DNA of 64,000 nt from a virus (Duplodnaviria > Heunggongvirae > Uroviricota > Caudoviricetes). The DNA lies in IMG/VR virus record IMGVR_UViG_2713896798_000008; one strand, given 5' to 3'. The position numbers and the translations under genes were made by a program. A model generated the notes under the pieces. That model made no database searches, was not told where the DNA came from, and saw only the letters and a program-made list of their open reading frames with translations. Below are positions 23,374-54,760 of the stretch, piece by piece. The stretch's first letter is position 1, and every line of letters starts with the position of its first letter.

Positions 23374-23841
23374 CTAGTTAATACACTGAGTGCGGATATA
23401 TTCCTGCGCCCCTTCCAGCTGCTTCTGCATCATCATCAACCGTTCTCTGAGGATGAAATAATCCCGTTCAGCGGTGTCTGCCAGTCGGGGGCCGGTTGCA
23501 TTATCCACGCCGGAGGTGCCGGTGGCTTCACGCACGGTACCGTGGCAGGTGGCGTTGATCCGCAGGCGCTTACGACCAGCGGCAACATCAGCACGCAGAG
23601 TTTCATTTTCAGCTCTCGCATCGGCTAATTCCTTCGAGTATTTTGCATCGAGCGCAGCAACATCACGCTGACGCACCTGCATGTCAGTAATGGTGGCATT
23701 CGCCTGTTCCAGCTCTCTGGCTTTTTTATCGCGCTGCGCTTTGTAGGTGATGGCGTTATCGCGGTAATGATTAACAGCCCATAACAGACAGACGATGATG
23801 CAGATAACCAGAGCGTAAATAATCGCGGTTACTCTTCTCAC
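23374..23841 (-). CDS. Rz: spanin inner-membrane subunit Rz
   Basis: [17 protein letters not shown]...[16 protein letters not shown] matches lambda Rz; GTG start overlaps endolysin stop (GTGA). Confidence 0.85.
23436..23621 (-). CDS. Rz1: spanin outer-membrane lipoprotein Rz1 (embedded in Rz, +1 frame)
   Basis: Lipobox VVSAC and proline-rich [27 protein letters not shown] as in lambda Rz1. Confidence 0.8.
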
Positions 23842-24371
23842 TGATCTATCCCCCAACAAGCTAATGCGCTTTCCTGGTCACGACGAATAACCTGTCCGTA
23901 GCAGTTATTTGAACGTGTGCGGCAATCACGCCCACCGTCCTTAATCCACCAGCGAATCGCCTCACACGCTCCCCTGCGATCACCTGCATTAATTCGTTTA
24001 TAAAACGTCGACGGGAAACACTTACCGGGACCAATGTTGTACGGACAGAATGACGCAATCCCCGCTTTCTGGGGTTCGGTCAGTGGCACTTTGATGTTTT
24101 TCTCCACCCATGCCAGCGCCTTATCACGCTCAATGGCGTTAACCCGGTCGCATTTTTCCTTCGACAGCTTCATGCCAGGAATCACAGGCTTACCATCCAC
24201 CATGATGGCACCTCGGCAGATGGTCCAGATACCCGCACCATCACGGTATGCCGTGGTGTGGTTACCTTCCTTTTCATCCAGAAACTGGTCGAGAATGTCA
24301 GGCGCAGGCGCACCAGCGGCAATCAGCGCCAGAACGGCAGCCGACAGGCCGTATTTGATTTTGGTGTTCAT
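23838..24371 (-). CDS. SAR-type endolysin (T4-lysozyme-like, GH24)
   Basis: 177 aa; N-terminal signal-anchor [21 protein letters not shown]; near-identical to RrrD/RrrQ-type lysozymes. Confidence 0.9.
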
Positions 24372-24413
24372 GGATATTTATCAGGATTTATCGGCAACAG
24401 ATAACGAGCCAGC

Positions 24414-24974
24414 TTATATACGTCCTTTAAGATAAGTCAGTCCTGGATGAAACCAGTAAGCCGGCACTTTTTTAAAGGGCGGGTTGTCAAACTCACGAAG
24501 AAGAGCCTCCCGCACAACTGCATCCTTGTCAGCACCACTGGCCAGCGCTTCAATCTCAGCAGCTATCTGCAGATATCCCATGCAACGACCAATGCACTTC
24601 ATCAGCCCCTGCTTTTTATTGTTCTTCAGGTAATCAATGGCAAATTCAATGAGCTCCTCACTATGCTGGTGCGATGGCGGTGTTACTTTCCCATTTTCTG
24701 AGATGGTTATTTTCCCAGCATCACCGGATACAACAAAGGATGGCCGGTTACACTCCCATTCCAGCTCACTGAAATTATCATTATGAATACTGAAACACTC
24801 TGAGAGATTTCTGCTCATCACTTTCCGACAATAATCGTCAAACGCAGCAAACTGCTCATCGCGGCGTTTTTTTTCATCTTCAGAAGGCATCAGCGTCGAC
24901 AGTTTTTTATTCAGTTCAGCAATTTCATTTTCCAGACGACTGAAGCGCTGATTCATTTCTTCATGGTTCATCAC
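24414..24974 (-). CDS. hypothetical protein inserted between holin and endolysin (moron)
   Basis: 186 aa; coiled-coil-like N-terminus; occupies the slot held by ydfR in the Qin-like remnant; no family recognised. Confidence 0.5.
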   Translation of the reverse strand: MMNHEEMNQRFSRLENEIAELNKKLSTLMPSEDEKKRRDEQFAAFDDYCRKVMSRNLSECFSIHNDNFSELEWECNRPSFVVSGDAGKITISENGKVTPPSHQHSEELIEFAIDYLKNNKKQGLMKCIGRCMGYLQIAAEIEALASGADKDAVVREALLREFDNPPFKKVPAYWFHPGLTYLKGRI

Positions 24975-25181
24975 CTAATCTCCCCGGGCAGCCTTGCGAC
25001 GGTCCTCTTTAATTTTGAAATACAGGTTAGTCAGATACGTCAGCAGGCCAAACAGCAGACTCCCCAGCACACCTATCGCCACCCACTGGGACGGAGAGAC
25101 TTTGTCCAGCAGCTGCAGTAACCAGTATCCCGTCCCCACCGCTGACGTGGTGTATGACACACCTGTTGTGATTTTTTCCAT
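24975..25181 (-). CDS. S: class II holin (phage 21 S / pinholin family)
   Basis: [42 protein letters not shown]...[13 protein letters not shown] matches the S21/EssD family. Confidence 0.85.
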
Positions 25182-25230
25182 CCGATGTATGTCTCCGTCA
25201 CCGCCGACAGAAAATGAAAGTAAAGAAAAA

Positions 25231-25261
25231 CAAAAAAACCGCCAGTGTCACCCACTGACGG
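25231..25261 (-). terminator. candidate rho-independent terminator immediately upstream of S
   Basis: Hairpin ccgccagtg/cactgacgg (one mismatch) followed by U-run on minus strand. Confidence 0.35.
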
Positions 25262-25360
25262 CCAACTCCGGGAGCCGTGATTATGGCATTCAGGCTCTGC
25301 TAAAAATGCCAGATAACATTCCGGCCCCCCCCTAGTTCAGGTTATAAATGACACAATATC

Positions 25361-25480
25361 TTGACAACATCCGTCACTGTCTGTCAGAAAATATACCGCC
25401 AGGCATAAGTATCATGTGAAATCCAACTATCCTTTTGAGCCAGCACCTCTCCACCGAAAGTCAGTGCTGGCTGTTTTTTT
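25361..25480 (+). ncRNA. sRNA-like module 1 (TTGACA ... hairpin ... T-run); function unknown
   Basis: TTGACA at 25361, hairpin agccagcac/gtgctggct at about 25437-25472, then T7; paralogous to module 2. Confidence 0.25.
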
Positions 25481-25528
25481 CCTTAATAAAGCATCTGTAA
25501 CTGAAACAATCCGCATATTGATAATATA

Positions 25529-25627
25529 TTGACAGGCATCATTGCTGTCTGTGAAAAATAAGTCTCTACAAACATATAAGGCCTTTTAGCCAGCGTCTTC
25601 TTTCAGGTCAGCCGCTGGCTTTTTTTA
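25529..25627 (+). ncRNA. sRNA-like module 2 (paralogue of module 1)
   Basis: TTGACA at 25529, conserved ctgtctgt box, hairpin agccagcg/cgctggct, then T7 ending at nanS-p stop. Confidence 0.25.
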
Positions 25628-27529
25628 TTATGCTGCCGGTGCATTTATCTCCAGCACCAGACTTTCTATCTCAACGCCATACGCTGCATTTTTTGTAACA
25701 TCCGTCAGCGTCAGCGCATTCAGCCCCAGTGTCAGACTGTCTTTTATGACCTGGAATGCCGGGCCAGCCACTCCATTCAGTTTCGGAGTAACCGTGGCAC
25801 TGCCGGCGGTGAACACCAGCTCCAGCGTCTGCCAGTCGTTACCGTAATCGCCGAACTCCCCCAGCTTCGTGTTTCCGGCTTTCCTGTGATGCATCAGATT
25901 CACTCTGCCGTCAGTGGTCTGAGTGAAGTACGACATCAGGAACGGATTACCGGTACCCGTCATCGCCACACCATCAGGAACGGGAGCATCCGTATACAGA
26001 TAAATCCCCAGCCCGAACTGATTGTTGGTCAGTGCGCCTGACAGGCGGAACTTACAGGTCAGTCTGCCGCCCTGTGTCAGCAGGGTAATTGCGTCATCCA
26101 CCGGATGCGTCAGGGACCAGGTTTTATTGCTCTGCTTGGTGATCTTAAATACACCATCTGACAACTGAATTCCGCCATCCTTAATGCTCCAGCCCTGCGC
26201 AGCAGCCTCTCCGGCTGCCGGCAGCAGGGAGATTGTGCGAACGGACGTATCTGCAGACGGACCCGATGGCGTGTTGCCGCCGGGCGAGGGTTTGATTTCC
26301 GGTGCCTTACCACTGATGAAGGCTGAGGTGCGCCCGGCTGCGTTCAGAATAGCGGTTGCCATACGATCCGGAATAATGCTCCTGCGCGCCCATGAACTGA
26401 AATGTGTCGGGCGGTTTGATGATACCTGGTTTCCATTCGTTCTCGATGCCGCACCGTAATATCCTGATGCCGGAATATCCGGATCTTCTGCCGGCGCGTT
26501 AGTGGCGGTATTGACGCCGTTACCGTCTGTCATGAAGGGCACAAAATAAACGCCCTCACTCTCCCTGTTTTTATACCCGCCGTACACGGTGTCGTACTGG
26601 GTAGCGTATGTATTTTTCCAGTAATACGTCGTGTCACCACAAATCCACGGCACATCTGCAGCACTGCCACCATGGCACTGCGCGTTAAACACGGAGAGGT
26701 CAGCACGAAACTGTGTCAGCATGGCTGTAAACAGCGCAGGTTGCTGTGCGTGGGTGGCGGCGCTCATGTCAAACTCTCCCTGCATCCAGCACACCGCCAG
26801 CAACACATTTTTCGGGTTCTTCTGTAATGCAGCTTTGGTGCGCGCAATCAGGTCCTGATATAACGGTTTACCCACACCCCAGCGCGCCGAATCCTGGCTG
26901 GCCCCCGTGTCCGCACTGAATGTCCCCTCCGCGCCCTGGGTAAATGCCGAACCACCACGACAGCATGGTACCAGCAGGATCCCCGCGTTATTCGGGATAT
27001 ACGGGAGCAGTTTTTTGGCAATATGTAACCCCTGGCCGACACAGCCGTACTGCCCTTTGCTCAGGTCTGCCTTCGGATGATTCAGCGTACTCATATCCTG
27101 CACATCATGCAGGCAGTGGTCGGCCGGAATAATATCGTTATATCTGCAGGCAGCCCCACCCGGCGTCACTGTACTGCGGCGCGCCAGCTGCTTAATGCGC
27201 GGGTCCGGACGGTCATATGTCTCCGGCAGCGGAAGGCCTTCACCATATGCCATGCCGTTTGACTGCCCCGCCAGAACCACAACAAAGTAATACTCCGGGT
27301 CTCTGGTGGCGCTGATTACTGTGCCTTCTCCATCCGACGGCTTCACCACAACAGGTGTGCTCACATCACCTTCTGCGACAATCGCCTGAATAAGTGCTGC
27401 GCCATCATCCGTATACGAAGAAAACGGCCCGCCGTATGGCTGCCATCCTTCACGAATTTTTTGAGCAAGCGCATCCGCAAGGTCTGACGGCGACGCCGCC
27501 CTGACCACGTCATAGTGTTTAAATGCCAT
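25628..27529 (-). CDS. nanS-p: prophage sialate O-acetylesterase NanS-p (SGNH/SASA family)
   Basis: 633 aa; GQSN motif (VVVLAGQSNGMAYGE); position between tRNA genes and S as in Stx phages. Confidence 0.8.
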   Translation of the reverse strand: MAFKHYDVVRAASPSDLADALAQKIREGWQPYGGPFSSYTDDGAALIQAIVAEGDVSTPVVVKPSDGEGTVISATRDPEYYFVVVLAGQSNGMAYGEGLPLPETYDRPDPRIKQLARRSTVTPGGAACRYNDIIPADHCLHDVQDMSTLNHPKADLSKGQYGCVGQGLHIAKKLLPYIPNNAGILLVPCCRGGSAFTQGAEGTFSADTGASQDSARWGVGKPLYQDLIARTKAALQKNPKNVLLAVCWMQGEFDMSAATHAQQPALFTAMLTQFRADLSVFNAQCHGGSAADVPWICGDTTYYWKNTYATQYDTVYGGYKNRESEGVYFVPFMTDGNGVNTATNAPAEDPDIPASGYYGAASRTNGNQVSSNRPTHFSSWARRSIIPDRMATAILNAAGRTSAFISGKAPEIKPSPGGNTPSGPSADTSVRTISLLPAAGEAAAQGWSIKDGGIQLSDGVFKITKQSNKTWSLTHPVDDAITLLTQGGRLTCKFRLSGALTNNQFGLGIYLYTDAPVPDGVAMTGTGNPFLMSYFTQTTDGRVNLMHHRKAGNTKLGEFGDYGNDWQTLELVFTAGSATVTPKLNGVAGPAFQVIKDSLTLGLNALTLTDVTKNAAYGVEIESLVLEINAPAA

Positions 27530-28059
27530 GAATCCTCCCGGCCGGGATAATGTTGTGAGTCAGATAAGGGGCGGGCTGAAGTCCGGAAGTTACAGGACAA
27601 TGACAGAAGGAAGACTACAGCCCGCAATACGAAAAAGGCCGCGCAGTTGCGCAGCCTTATAAACCCTGGTTAAAATCCACACGATAAAAATGACAATGCA
27701 AGTATCTCATGCTGTTGCCCGAACCTACTCGGGCTTTTTTTGCATGTAAAAAGGCTCCTGCGATGAGGAGCCTGGATATATGCCTAATCTCTGTATACAG
27801 CATGATGCCGGGTGCCTCCCGGTGAATTCTGCAATGACCAGACAGAATCCGCAACTTGCCTATACAATACGCAACCAAACATCTGTCATTATGCCCCGCC
27901 GCCCAGGGGGATTCATCATGCAGGATTTTTTTAACAAACGCTCAGCATGTCAGGCAACAGTCAACTACCTGAATTGTGAGGCATTTAACATTTCACTGTC
28001 CGGTGTCTTTCCTGTAATAAAAAGCCCGCAAAAGAGAGTCAGGGCAGATAAGTGTGGTG

Positions 28060-28136
28060 TGGCGCGTTGTACTGGATTCGAACCAGTGACCGATTGCTTA
28101 GAAGGCAATTGCTCTGTCCGGCTGAGCTAACAACGC
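28060..28136 (-). tRNA. argO: tRNA-Arg (anticodon UCU)
   Basis: Cloverleaf read manually: acceptor GCGTTGT/ACAACGC, anticodon loop CTTCTAA, T-loop GGTTCGAATCC, discriminator G plus CCA; 77 nt. Confidence 0.85.
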
Positions 28137-28149
28137 AGAATACCGATAA

Positions 28150-28215
28150 TGGACCGCCACCGGGGACTCCGAATCTCGCACAGGGTGACGTTCTTTCCTG
28201 ATGAGCTAGTGGCGG
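28150..28215 (-). other. degenerate tRNA-like element between the two tRNA genes (possible argN remnant)
   Basis: 7-bp acceptor-like pairing CCGCCAC/GTGGCGG plus CCA end but only 66 nt and no convincing D or anticodon arm. Confidence 0.25.
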
Positions 28216-28216
28216 T

Positions 28217-28292
28217 TGGTGGCCCTTGCTGGATTTGAACCAGCGACCTGGCGATTATGAGTCACTCGCTCTCACCACTGAGCTAAAGGGCC
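28217..28292 (-). tRNA. ileZ: tRNA with CAU anticodon (Ile2/lysidine type, ileZ-like, or Met)
   Basis: Cloverleaf read manually: GGCCCTT acceptor, CTCATAA anticodon loop, T-arm GCTGGTTCAAATCCAGC, CCA; similar to E. coli ileX. Confidence 0.85.
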
Positions 28293-28332: not shown

Positions 28333-29391
28333 TCATCCGTTCTGACTGATTAAATCCTGAACTTCCCTGACTGTCTGCTCAAAACGTCCGGTCTCCAGCT
28401 CAACACCAATCGCCCTACGTCCCAGTGACAGCGCCGCTTTTACCGTTGAACCTGACCCCATGAAGAAATCTGCAACCAGGTCTCCCGGACGACTGCTCGC
28501 ACTGATTATCTGCCGCAGCATTTCTGCCGGTTTTTCGCACGGATGTTTTCCGGGATAGTACTGTACGGGTTTGTGCGTCCACACATCCGTATAAGGAACC
28601 GCAGCCGATACGGAAAAATAACGCCGCAGGGTTTTATACTCTTCCTGCAGGCTGACATATTGTCGGTTCAGTTCACTGTATGTACTGACCAGCTGGTGGT
28701 GTGGCCATTCCAGTTCACCGCGCTGATGCTTCTCTTCTGCCACCCGGACAAACAGCGCCTGTAATTTCAGATAATCGCTTTCGTTCGGCAACTGCCACTG
28801 ACTGGCACTGAACCAGTGCGACACCATGTTTTTCTTTCCTGTGACATCTGCAATCTGTTTTGCCGTTATCCCCAGGGCAGCGCGCGCATCACGAAAGTAA
28901 GCAATCAGCGGGGCCATCACATGCTGTTTCAGTGCCCTGCCCTTCGCCTCACAGCCATCATCTTTCGGGCGATACGGCCCCTGATAATGTTCCGCGAACA
29001 GAATGCGCTCTGTGGCCGGAAAATACGCCCGCAGGCTTTCCTTGTTACACCCGTTCCAGCGTCCGGACGGCTTTGCCCAGATGATATGGTTCAGTACGTT
29101 AAACCGCTCACGCATCATGATTTCGGTGTCAGATGCCAGGCGATGGCCACAGAACAGGTAAAGACTTCCGGCTGGTTTCAGCACCCGCCAGAACTGCGCA
29201 AGGCACTGGTCCAGCCACTTCAGGTAATCTTCATCACCCACCCACAGGTTATCCCAGTCCGCGGGTTTCACTTTGAAGTACGGCGGGTCCGTGACTATCA
29301 GGTCCACAGAATTTTCGGGTAACGACCGCATAAATTCCAGGCAGTCGGCGTTGATTAACTCATAACTGGATATTTTTACAGTATTAAGCAT
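28333..29391 (-). CDS. orphan DNA methyltransferase (N6-adenine/N4-cytosine, DPPY motif)
   Basis: 352 aa; motif IVTDPPYF; no adjacent restriction endonuclease gene. Confidence 0.85.
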   Translation of the reverse strand: MLNTVKISSYELINADCLEFMRSLPENSVDLIVTDPPYFKVKPADWDNLWVGDEDYLKWLDQCLAQFWRVLKPAGSLYLFCGHRLASDTEIMMRERFNVLNHIIWAKPSGRWNGCNKESLRAYFPATERILFAEHYQGPYRPKDDGCEAKGRALKQHVMAPLIAYFRDARAALGITAKQIADVTGKKNMVSHWFSASQWQLPNESDYLKLQALFVRVAEEKHQRGELEWPHHQLVSTYSELNRQYVSLQEEYKTLRRYFSVSAAVPYTDVWTHKPVQYYPGKHPCEKPAEMLRQIISASSRPGDLVADFFMGSGSTVKAALSLGRRAIGVELETGRFEQTVREVQDLISQNG

Positions 29392-29823: not shown

Positions 29824-29863
29824 CCACCAGCGCGTTTACTGTACTGACGCGATTTTCGGGCAT

Positions 29864-29890
29864 AAAAAAACCGCCTGGCGGCGGTTTTTT
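29864..29890 (-). terminator. tR'-like terminator downstream of late promoter
   Basis: Hairpin ccgcc-tggc-ggcgg flanked by A7 and T6 (bidirectional form). Confidence 0.5.
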
Positions 29891-29939
29891 CTTACTTTGC
29901 CATCGCGTACAAAATCGGCAAAATATCAGATTTACATGA

Positions 29940-29968
29940 AATATATGCTCTTCAGTTCTATTTTGCAA
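29940..29968 (-). promoter_or_regulatory. candidate late promoter pR' (sigma70 -35 TTGCAA, 17-bp spacer, -10 TATATT)
   Basis: Minus-strand hexamers at 29963..29968 and 29940..29945, immediately downstream of Q stop. Confidence 0.45.
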
Positions 29969-30647
29969 GATATGGTTCTAAATTAAGCGACTGTTGCCGT
30001 GATCGTACCCGCATTACTGAAATAAGAGCATCCCTGTCCAGCCCCTCTGCACTACCCCGCATAGCCAACCAGTGAGGCCTGTGTGTTGTTGTCCATGTAG
30101 ATTTAGCAACTCCCATCAACACCGCCAACGCCTGATGTTCATAGGTCTCACGCCCGACCAGCTCGCTCTTCACATCCTGTACAGCCAGCCAGATCAACCT
30201 CTTCAGGCGTTCCTGCGTTTTCCCCGCTATTTTTCTGGTACCGGATTGAGCCTTAAACTCACTCCATACCCACTGTGTTATGGTGACCTGATCTTCCCAG
30301 CAAACATTTCCACTGTAGCACCACAGTAACCACGCCTTCTGATGCTCTTCCAGTTCCAGAACGGCACGCCGCCACGATGATGTTGAAAACTCAACCGGAC
30401 TGACCAGAGGAATTGACGTCCCCTTCGCCAGCGATTGCTTTCCCGGGATTGGTGGATTATCCCGCGTTATCATTTTTCCAGTCACTTCATCGCGGTACCG
30501 GATTTTTTTTCGCCTGTAACGCCCTGTATCGAACATGGCATTCTCTTGCCAGGCTTCAAGCTGACCTTTTGTTGCCCCACTCAAATCAGCGGTGGCGATA
30601 ATGAGCTGCTCACGCACAAACTGTAAATACTGGTTATTCATGCGCAC
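29958..30647 (-). CDS. late-gene antiterminator Q-like protein
   Basis: Called by position (after rusA, directly before the pR'/tR' candidates); sequence family not recognised with certainty. Confidence 0.5.
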   Translation of the reverse strand: MRMNNQYLQFVREQLIIATADLSGATKGQLEAWQENAMFDTGRYRRKKIRYRDEVTGKMITRDNPPIPGKQSLAKGTSIPLVSPVEFSTSSWRRAVLELEEHQKAWLLWCYSGNVCWEDQVTITQWVWSEFKAQSGTRKIAGKTQERLKRLIWLAVQDVKSELVGRETYEHQALAVLMGVAKSTWTTTHRPHWLAMRGSAEGLDRDALISVMRVRSRQQSLNLEPYLAK

Positions 30648-51089: not shown

Positions 51090-51360
51090 GATGTTACCGT
51101 AGTATGTGAGTATCCATCGAATAGACACCAAGCAAAAAAGCTCCCGAAGGAGCCTTCATTTTCACTTTTTTAAATCCAACGACAGACGGCTGGCATTTAA
51201 GTATTGTGAAATATTATCAAATGTAATCATCATTGATTTACAAAAGATACATTTTGCCCCGAAAGGATTCATGTCAGAAACATCAAAAGATGATGTTCTA
51301 TACTGGGAACCATGACAACACGGGCATCTAAAGTGAATATGGTTTGTAATATTGTCTACC

Positions 51361-51573
51361 TCAAAGCGCCACTACATGAACAGCGGCAGGACCTTTAGGT
51401 CCGTTCTCAATACCAAATTCAACTTCCTGATTCTCAGTTAATGTTTTGAAATCGTTGCTCTGAATTGCTGAGAAATGGACAAACACATCTTTGCTGCCAT
51501 CTTTCGGCGTGATGAAACCAAAACCTTTTTCAGGGTTAAACCATTTCACTAAACCAGTCATTTTGTTAGACAT
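51361..51573 (-). CDS. cspI: cold-shock protein CspI-like
   Basis: [23 protein letters not shown]... CspA family. Confidence 0.85.
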
Positions 51574-51935
51574 AATTATTACCTTTTGAAGAAATTAGCC
51601 CTTGGGCAGAATGGTCCGAAAAAAAATATCAGAGAGAAAAACCAACAAGGAAATCTCAAGAGGTACAAATAATAAAATTATAACAATGACTGCTTCAGAT
51701 AAATTTGTAACAAACCAGAACACCATTAACGCATGATTAACCACCCATAGCAAGGATTACTTTTGTAAAGAAAAACACAGCAATGAAAGAATGGCTTTAT
51801 TTATTAATAAAACGTGTCATTCTGATTAAGACCTTTTATCTTACCCTTAAGATTTCAGGAATTTTGGCTCATGGAAGAGTCCTTTTTATTTAAATTTTAC
51901 ATTCCGCGATGTAAATGTTCCGATTTAATATTACC

Positions 51936-53881: not shown

Positions 53882-54244
53882 TTGATTTTATTAGTAACAA
53901 GTATTTTTTATATTTTAATAATATATTTAAAGCAGATAATAAAAAACCCGCCTGAGCGGGTTTGAGATTGTGGTGCTTTTTGTGGGAGTCATCCACTTAC
54001 GCACTTTGTTTTGCCATGCCAGCAGTTAGCTTCTGCTGTAAAACTATTCATGCAGCAAACCTGCACTTCACCACAATGGTTAGCATACTTTTCCTGATTA
54101 AGATTTTGCCAAATATGCTAGCCATTGTTTCATGTATTGGACCTCCTTACTTTTTATTAAAGAGATCCAATATTCACTACTCTGTCCGTATCTCTACTCA
54201 GGCATCAGCCTTCTTCGTTATCGTATACAGACGAGCGATGAATT

Positions 54245-54460
54245 TTAATCAGTAATGATGACATTTGCTGCTGCAGGACCTTTAGCACCACTCTCTATAG
54301 AGAAGGTAACCTTTTGACCTTCAAATAAGGTTCGATAATTATCATTCTGAATCGCAGAAAAATGCACAAACACATCTTTACTACCATCAACAGGAGAAAT
54401 AAAGCCGAAACCTTTATCAGCGTTAAACCATTTTACTAAACCAGTCATTTTATTTGACAT
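54245..54460 (-). CDS. cspB: cold-shock protein CspB-like
   Basis: [23 protein letters not shown]... Confidence 0.85.
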
Positions 54461-54760
54461 TCTACATTCCTTAACTTGAGCCTTTCGGCATAAATGGTTT
54501 GCATAACAGAAACGACTTCGTACTTAATTGGAGAGACTCAAAGAAGGAATAAGTGAATAACACCTGAAATGAGAACTGCTTTAGTAAACTACTTCGTATA
54601 TCGTCTGTTCTTCAAACCGACGCAATCATTAACGCATAGTTGAACATATGAAGCAATGTTTATTTTAGACATCCAGCCATCTTCAACCCCATCAAAAAAC
54701 TATAGCTTTCTTCAGGAACGTGTGTATAGTGCGCCAAGTTATCAGTATTAAGGAATTTTT

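Follow-up and report, generated by a model that had tools for sequence, protein, structure and literature searches.

The 530-bp interval between the argO tRNA gene and the sialate esterase gene nanS-p in this prophage's late region holds two described regulatory RNA genes, and the prophage is an ordinary toxin-free relative that gives no hint of former toxin genes. The interval is very probably the standard "moron-site" segment of a lambdoid prophage of the Sakai Sp9 type that has no protein cargo. It lies within a 64,000-nucleotide stretch of viral DNA (IMG/VR record IMGVR_UViG_2713896798_000008, called the window here), and the original prediction had read it as an empty toxin slot of about 530 bp with only hairpins in it. 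The toxin is indeed absent, but the part of the interval that is equivalent to stx is only about 39 bp long (27980–28018); about 450 of the 530 bp are a conserved sRNA dyad and the nanS-p leader, a backbone also found behind stxB in Stx phages. The gap looked empty because RefSeq annotates nothing in it. Earlier publications already describe the layout and the dyad as well as both RNA families and the moron site, and none of the main conclusions is new.

Late region and flanking genes

The late region is on the minus strand and has the order Q, pR'/tR'-like site, DNA methylase, ileZ, argN relic, argO, the 530-bp gap, nanS-p, S, R and Rz; this is the order originally predicted, with the genes identified by Pfam and ARAGORN and the pR'/tR' site by consensus scan only. 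The antiterminator Q gene (29958–30647, 229 aa) matches PF06323 (Phage_antiter_Q, E 1.2e-88). The putative pR'/tR' region that follows it (29862–29968), found by consensus matching only, includes a pR'-like promoter, TTGCAA-17-TATATT (29968→29940), and a tR'-like terminator with a T run (29882→29870), and these imply a transcript of about 60–70 nt directly after Q on the minus strand, which would be analogous to λ 6S RNA, StxS or IsrK; there is a weak isrK-like Rfam match, at 22 bits, below threshold. The next gene (28333–29391, 352 aa) encodes an N6/N4 DNA methyltransferase (PF01555, E 3e-43) that is 91% identical in amino acid sequence to Sakai Sp9 ECs_1780.

The tRNA genes of the original prediction prove to be two intact genes and a relic. 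The first intact gene (28217–28292) has a CAT anticodon, is of the ileZ type (ARAGORN; Rfam tRNA, 68.3 bits) and is called tRNA-Ile in RefSeq relatives, and the second (28060–28136) is the tRNA-Arg TCT gene argO (ARAGORN; Rfam, 70.1 bits). The 80 bp between them (28137–28216) align to the argN gene of phage 933W, relative to which a deletion of about 11 nt takes out the anticodon arm, and neither ARAGORN nor Rfam calls a tRNA there. The ileZ–argO spacing of Sakai Sp9 equals that of the window.

On the other side of the gap, nanS-p (25628–27529, 633 aa) encodes a sialate O-acetylesterase with DUF1737, SASA and DUF6645 domains; its SASA catalytic domain lies between phage-specific N- and C-terminal domains and the gene is upstream of the lysis genes, an architecture that has been described for NanS-p proteins (PMC10462455). 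The lysis cassette (23374–25181; PF04971, PF00959 and PF03245) contains genes for a P21-type holin S (24975–25181), lysozyme R (23838–24371) and Rz (23374–23859), all identified by Pfam, and between S and R a 186-aa ORF (24414–24974) that has no Pfam match and is annotated as a hypothetical protein in the RefSeq record of a near-identical strain. The 446-bp region between nanS-p and S (25182–25627) gives no Rfam match, but its late (minus) strand has a site that resembles a promoter (25551→25523) and a strong hairpin that resembles a terminator (25263→25237); Zhu et al. (2026) place the PasA/PasC sRNAs at this intergenic position.

The prophage appears complete, in that integrase, repressor, Q, lysis, head and tail genes are all present, and the segment of the window is 100% identical to stretches of several sequenced E. 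coli chromosomes. Beside the lambdoid prophage integrase lie a truncated gene for an EAL-domain protein and an insertion of ISKpn26. Rfam finds IS009 and two cspA-type thermoregulator leaders (46941–47139, 51334–51719 and 54229–54621, all on the minus strand) in the neighbouring cryptic prophage region, which is Qin-like (ydfK, pinQ, tfaQ, ynfQ).

The closest known relative is Sakai prophage Sp9 (ECs_1778 to ECs_1786, with EcOnc03 and EcOnc28), which shares with the window the order Q, small ORF, 352-aa methylase, ileZ, 80-bp argN relic, argO, gap, nanS-p, S, ORF and R. The two are collinear over window positions 29887→25622 (92% identity over 4.3 kb), with both sRNA genes 98–100% identical. 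They differ in the Q gene, so that homology begins only at 29887, in one substitution in the anti-sRNA terminator loop, and in the 5' leader of nanS-p (27639–27530), which is only 58% identical to that of Sp9 and 95% identical to that of 933W. The gap is thus Sp9-type (98–100%) from argO to a conserved hairpin and 933W-type in the nanS-p leader beyond it (switch within 27530–27658), and switches of this kind make the region visibly mosaic.

Two convergent small RNA genes in the gap

The interval from argO to the nanS-p start codon is exactly 27530–28059, as had been predicted. The prediction of no ORF also holds, in that none in the interval is conserved; the description "only hairpins" does not hold, since two sRNA genes at or above the Rfam gathering scores are found there. 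The two genes are convergent, their 3' ends abut at 27742 and 27741, and each ends in an intrinsic terminator (27773→27752 and 27717–27734). The hairpins of the gap are these back-to-back terminators and one more, a GC-rich hairpin with a T run on the minus strand between the dyad and nanS-p (27658→27635; terminator scan, -20.1 kcal/mol), which is present in seven of seven aligned loci and overlaps the -35 region of the anti-sRNA on the opposite strand. Tree et al. (2014; PMC4104026) have described this convergent Hfq-sRNA dyad, with such pairs located between a moron CDS and a conserved downstream ORF in Sakai prophages Sp3, 4, 5, 9, 10, 11, 15 and 17; according to a review, at least eight Sakai prophages have sRNA dyads downstream of the late promoter and ahead of the lysis genes (PMC7873438). 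The dyad is found in many E. coli λ-like prophages, with or without Shiga toxin.

The gene on the minus strand, in the sense of the late operon (27950→27742), is a full-length member of the STnc100 family (RF02076, model positions 1–206, 175.6 bits against a threshold of 47, E 6e-40), and its terminator folds at -18 kcal/mol. It is a homologue of EcOnc28 of Sp9, to which it is 98–99% identical, and of EcOnc27/sRNA103 of Sp5/933W; the northern probe published for EcOnc27 matches the plus strand of the window near 27770. Later papers equate EcOnc27 with an STnc100 prediction downstream of stx2B, and Zhu, Shabalina and Storz (2026 preprint) report STnc100/PasD-type genes directly upstream of a sialate esterase gene. 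A consensus scan gives a candidate promoter, CTGACA-17-AAAAAT (27953→27925). The northern sizes of EcOnc27, about 235 and 247 nt (PMC4104026), suggest by analogy that the 5' end of the window RNA may instead lie near 27977, which is the start of a universally conserved block and is 7 nt downstream of a TTAAAT inside the 39-bp junction discussed below (27988–27983). The scan reports no promoter in the junction and TTAAAT has no good -35 partner, and the case for it as the core promoter of the STnc100-type RNA is weak. Since the terminator behind argO is also weak, processing from a tRNA read-through transcript is an alternative origin for this RNA.

The gene on the plus strand (27682–27741) is an anti-sRNA of the AgvB/AsxR family and carries the EcOnc03 allele. 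It matches the AgvB model (RF02702) at 56.2 bits, just at the threshold of 56, a score that is carried by the shared 3' part, and it reaches only 44 bits with the AsxR model (RF02703), below the threshold of 63. Its putative promoter, read from the sequence as TTGCGC, an 18-bp spacer and TAAAAT (27647–27676), lies in a region that is conserved upstream of the AgvB1, AsxR and EcOnc03 loci. The published EcOnc03 sequence (PMC4104026, Fig. S4) and the gene agree at 50 of 51 nt; the variable 5' part is included in this match, and the sole mismatch is in the terminator loop. The gene is identical to the Sp9 locus at 59 of 60 positions. The family was defined as RNAs of 51–60 nt with a conserved 3' region of about 42 nt that includes the terminator and a variable 5' region of 14–18 nt, convergent to a second sRNA downstream of pR' (PMC4104026), and the window gene fits this family of prophage anti-sRNAs, EcOnc01–03 (AgvB, AsxR and EcOnc03), when aligned with the Sp5, Sp9, Sp10 and YYZ-2008 loci. 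In Sp9, EcOnc03 was seen by Hfq-CRAC and by northern blot as species of 56, 54 and 51 nt that are destabilised without hfq (PMC4104026). EcOnc03-type anti-sRNAs are present in hundreds of pathogenic E. coli genomes; a literature search found no paper after Tree et al. (2014) that names EcOnc03.

AgvB acts as a sponge for GcvB, and AsxR for FnrS. The window anti-sRNA has its promoter, its start (CGAU...) and the 42 nt at its 3' end in common with both AgvB1 (Sakai Sp10) and AsxR (Sp5/933W), and it shares with AgvB (RF02702; Sp10 and Sp17) the terminator and the position convergent to an STnc100-type RNA, but its 5' region is unlike that of either. That region, CGAUAAAAAUGACAAUGCA, has no CACAACA, the GcvB R1 target consensus, whereas AgvB carries this motif and pairs through it with the GcvB R1 seed. 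In a crude pairing test (the 5' 24 nt of EcOnc03, RNAduplex, shuffled controls) the EcOnc03–GcvB duplex scored -11.5 kcal/mol (z +0.2), and AgvB1, which served as positive control and passed, scored -19.9 kcal/mol (z -2.3). The missing motif and a pairing with GcvB no better than that of shuffled seeds rule out AgvB proper, the anti-GcvB RNA. No signal was seen for an EcOnc03–FnrS duplex, in a test that also gave none for the known AsxR–FnrS pair.

Cargo slot and absence of the toxin

The prediction that the late region is built like the one in which Stx phages carry stxAB was right, and the flanks are homologous to those of Stx phages. We compared the window with 933W and Sakai Sp5 (both stx2a), YYZ-2008 (stx1a), Sakai Sp9 (no cargo) and Sakai Sp10 (a TciA/TerB-like gene). 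The left block, made up of the methylase 3' end, the tRNAs and the terminator behind argO, is 83–85% identical to the Stx-phage flank and ends at window position 28019 for 933W, Sp5 and Sp10. The right block begins at 27979 for the Stx2 phages (46 nt past the stx2B stop codon), at 27993 for the Stx1 phages (40 nt past the stx1B stop codon) and at 27939 for Sp10, and is 81–82% identical to the Stx phages across the gap from the first two of these points. The breakpoints at 28019 and at 27979 or 27993 therefore indicate a cargo slot of at most 39 bp, not 530 bp: the 39-bp "empty-site" junction of the window (27980–28018) stands opposite 1341 bp (stx2AB) in 933W and 744 bp (the TciA/TerB-like gene) in Sp10. 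The further claim that the slot is a cargo-exchange point is well founded, as Stx2, Stx1 and the TciA/TerB-like gene lie between the same flanking blocks, and the presence of the last at the same point in Sp10 shows that the exchange is real. In Sp10 this gene (L009:4128–4559) fills the stx-equivalent slot, and at least one further genome (NZ_CP025913.1) has an annotated TerB-family gene right next to an identical argO, so TciA/TerB-like genes may be a common alternative cargo.

The Stx2a phages 933W and Sp5 share with the window the tRNA block, the post-argO terminator, the convergent dyad, the conserved hairpin, nanS-p and the lysis genes. They differ in having the stx2 promoter, stx2A and stx2B in the slot, AsxR (with a different 5' seed) and EcOnc27 as their dyad, an intact argN, a Q of another family, and no more of the methylase than a 37-codon relic. 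The Stx1a phage YYZ-2008 and related Stx1a-converting phages have an EcOnc03-type anti-sRNA (59 of 60 nt) and nanS-p plus S at about 92% over 3 kb; unlike the window, they have stx1AB and an STnc100 part that is only 65–74% identical, and lack tRNAs and methylase upstream. The methylase relic is a C-terminus with 81% amino acid identity, located just upstream of ileZ in 933W (L004:967–1077), Sp5 (L008:2612–2722), and phi296 and O55:H7 RM12579 (L003:2955–3065 and L001:7597–7707); the annotated 933W tRNA promoter pT (locus positions 1083–1111) is just downstream of it. To judge by this relic, the layout of 933W seems to have come about by deletion from one that bears the methylase.

The last bases of the left block that are shared with the Stx2 phages and Sp10 form a weakened post-argO terminator (28019–28045, minus strand), which folds at -6.0 kcal/mol in the window as against -14.8 in 933W and -14.9 in Sp10. 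This terminator is degraded in the cargo-free alleles (window, Sp9 and O55:H7) and strong in the cargo-bearing 933W and Sp10. The correlation is imperfect, as the stx-free Traversvirus phi296 keeps a strong 933W-type 5' arm.

The original prediction left two histories for the missing toxin, a relative that was never converted and a prophage that lost its toxin genes. The second would have stxAB precisely deleted from an ancestral Stx phage with the 39-bp junction as the scar and, if the loss was ancient, a later spread of the empty allele, and we regard it as improbable. The homology of both flanks to stx flanks (82–85%) is compatible with it, as is the 93–98% identity of the EcOnc03 gene and promoter to those downstream of stx1B in YYZ-2008, from which it follows that part of the module does travel with the toxin, and for related loci Zhu et al. 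(2026) consider it possible that stx was lost repeatedly. Yet the window has the backbone flanks of an Stx-converting phage (tRNAs and terminator upstream, dyad and nanS-p downstream) with neither stxA nor stxB in the stretch from Q/pR' to the lysis genes, and no remnant of either gene was found in the whole window: the best match of Stx1A/B and Stx2A/B by tblastn has an E value of 0.6 and the best blastn match of the stx operons (word size 7) one of 0.26, both at chance level, with none to stxA, stxB or the stx promoter, so the residual promoter or stxB fragments that had been proposed as a check did not turn up. The junction is identical in Sp9 and O55:H7 RM12579 and is matched at 38 of 39 positions in phi296, where the gap sequence beside it is only 40–80% identical to the window, and this is not expected of a random deletion scar. 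The condition proposed for refuting toxin loss has a divided outcome, as the flanks resemble stx flanks and the interval is also conserved intact in many stx-negative relatives. Of 5,426 complete E. coli genomes, 491 have the uninterrupted arrangement, as a contiguous match to a 237-nt query that spans argO, the junction and the 5' half of STnc100. Identity to the Stx-phage copies is no more than 65–78% in the STnc100 part, and chimeric queries that join the 3' end of stx2B or stx1B to the right flank of the window found no stxB beside the window's STnc100 allele in the same 5,426 genomes; the best full-length chimera matches, 89.2% and 89.1%, are the values to be expected when the stx half matches perfectly and the flank at about 80%, and therefore indicate no linkage of toxin to this allele. 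The methylase relic also implies that it is the layout of the 933W-type Stx2 phages that is deletion-derived in this region. A cargo-free allele that was never converted, or at least has had no recent loss, rather than a decayed toxin locus, is thus most likely.

Two other readings of the gap leave the toxin aside. One takes it as a leader or attenuator of nanS-p and the lysis genes, with Q-dependent terminators and no trans-acting RNA; three terminator-like hairpins do lie upstream of nanS-p, and a role in insulation is plausible and compatible with a moron-site segment that encodes sRNAs. As a full account it is unlikely, since near-identical Sp9 copies (EcOnc03 and EcOnc28) give discrete Hfq-bound RNAs from both strands by CRAC and northern blot, and one of the genes runs against the late operon from a conserved promoter of its own. 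The other reading, that the gap encodes one or more small proteins, seems to us very unlikely indeed. Five small ORFs of 40–116 aa overlap the gap, some phage records annotate hypothetical proteins in it, and a 73-aa ORF (27657–27878) is one such protein in YYZ-2008; but this ORF has no Pfam match, RefSeq has no CDS in the gap, and the frames are broken by stops or frameshifts in the homologous copies of Sp9, YYZ-2008, 933W, Sp10 and phi296 while the RNA structural cores are conserved, so coding by these small ORFs was rejected.

Proposed function and meaning

The preferred reading, a moron-site segment with an sRNA dyad and no protein cargo, builds on the anatomy, homologies, breakpoints and distribution observed above, and it takes the expression and Hfq binding of the window RNAs by analogy from the near-identical Sp9 copies in the literature. 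An STnc100/EcOnc28-type RNA of about 210–235 nt would be transcribed in the direction of the late genes, and an EcOnc03-type anti-sRNA of 51–60 nt on the opposite strand, where it has a σ70 promoter of its own. Both would be made in the lysogen and would terminate back to back, and the conserved hairpin upstream of nanS-p together with the terminators would help to keep the esterase and lysis genes silent. Upon induction, Q-modified RNA polymerase from pR' would pass all of these terminators and go on to transcribe nanS-p, S, R and Rz. The variable 5' end of the anti-sRNA would sponge a core sRNA, as AgvB and AsxR do. Protein cargo, whether stx2AB, stx1AB or the TciA/TerB-like gene, would sit in a slot of at most 39 bp that has the post-argO terminator on one side and the dyad on the other, and homologous recombination in the conserved flanks would probably bring about its exchange.

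A stretch without ORFs in the late region of a prophage need not be an empty cargo bay, natural as that misreading is; here annotation pipelines leave the two sRNA genes blank. The lack of a toxin is here the common and stable state and not decay, and the stx insertion point in this backbone is narrowed to at most 39 bp. We suggest only tentatively that such toxin-free prophages may be "converting" in a regulatory sense, with the EcOnc03-type seed AAAAAUGACAAUGCA sponging a core sRNA other than GcvB or FnrS, and that the junction may be functional as well. Besides its possible promoter role it could, with the weakened post-argO terminator, couple the STnc100-type RNA to the tRNA transcript; if the junction functions in either way, insertion of cargo would rewire sRNA expression.
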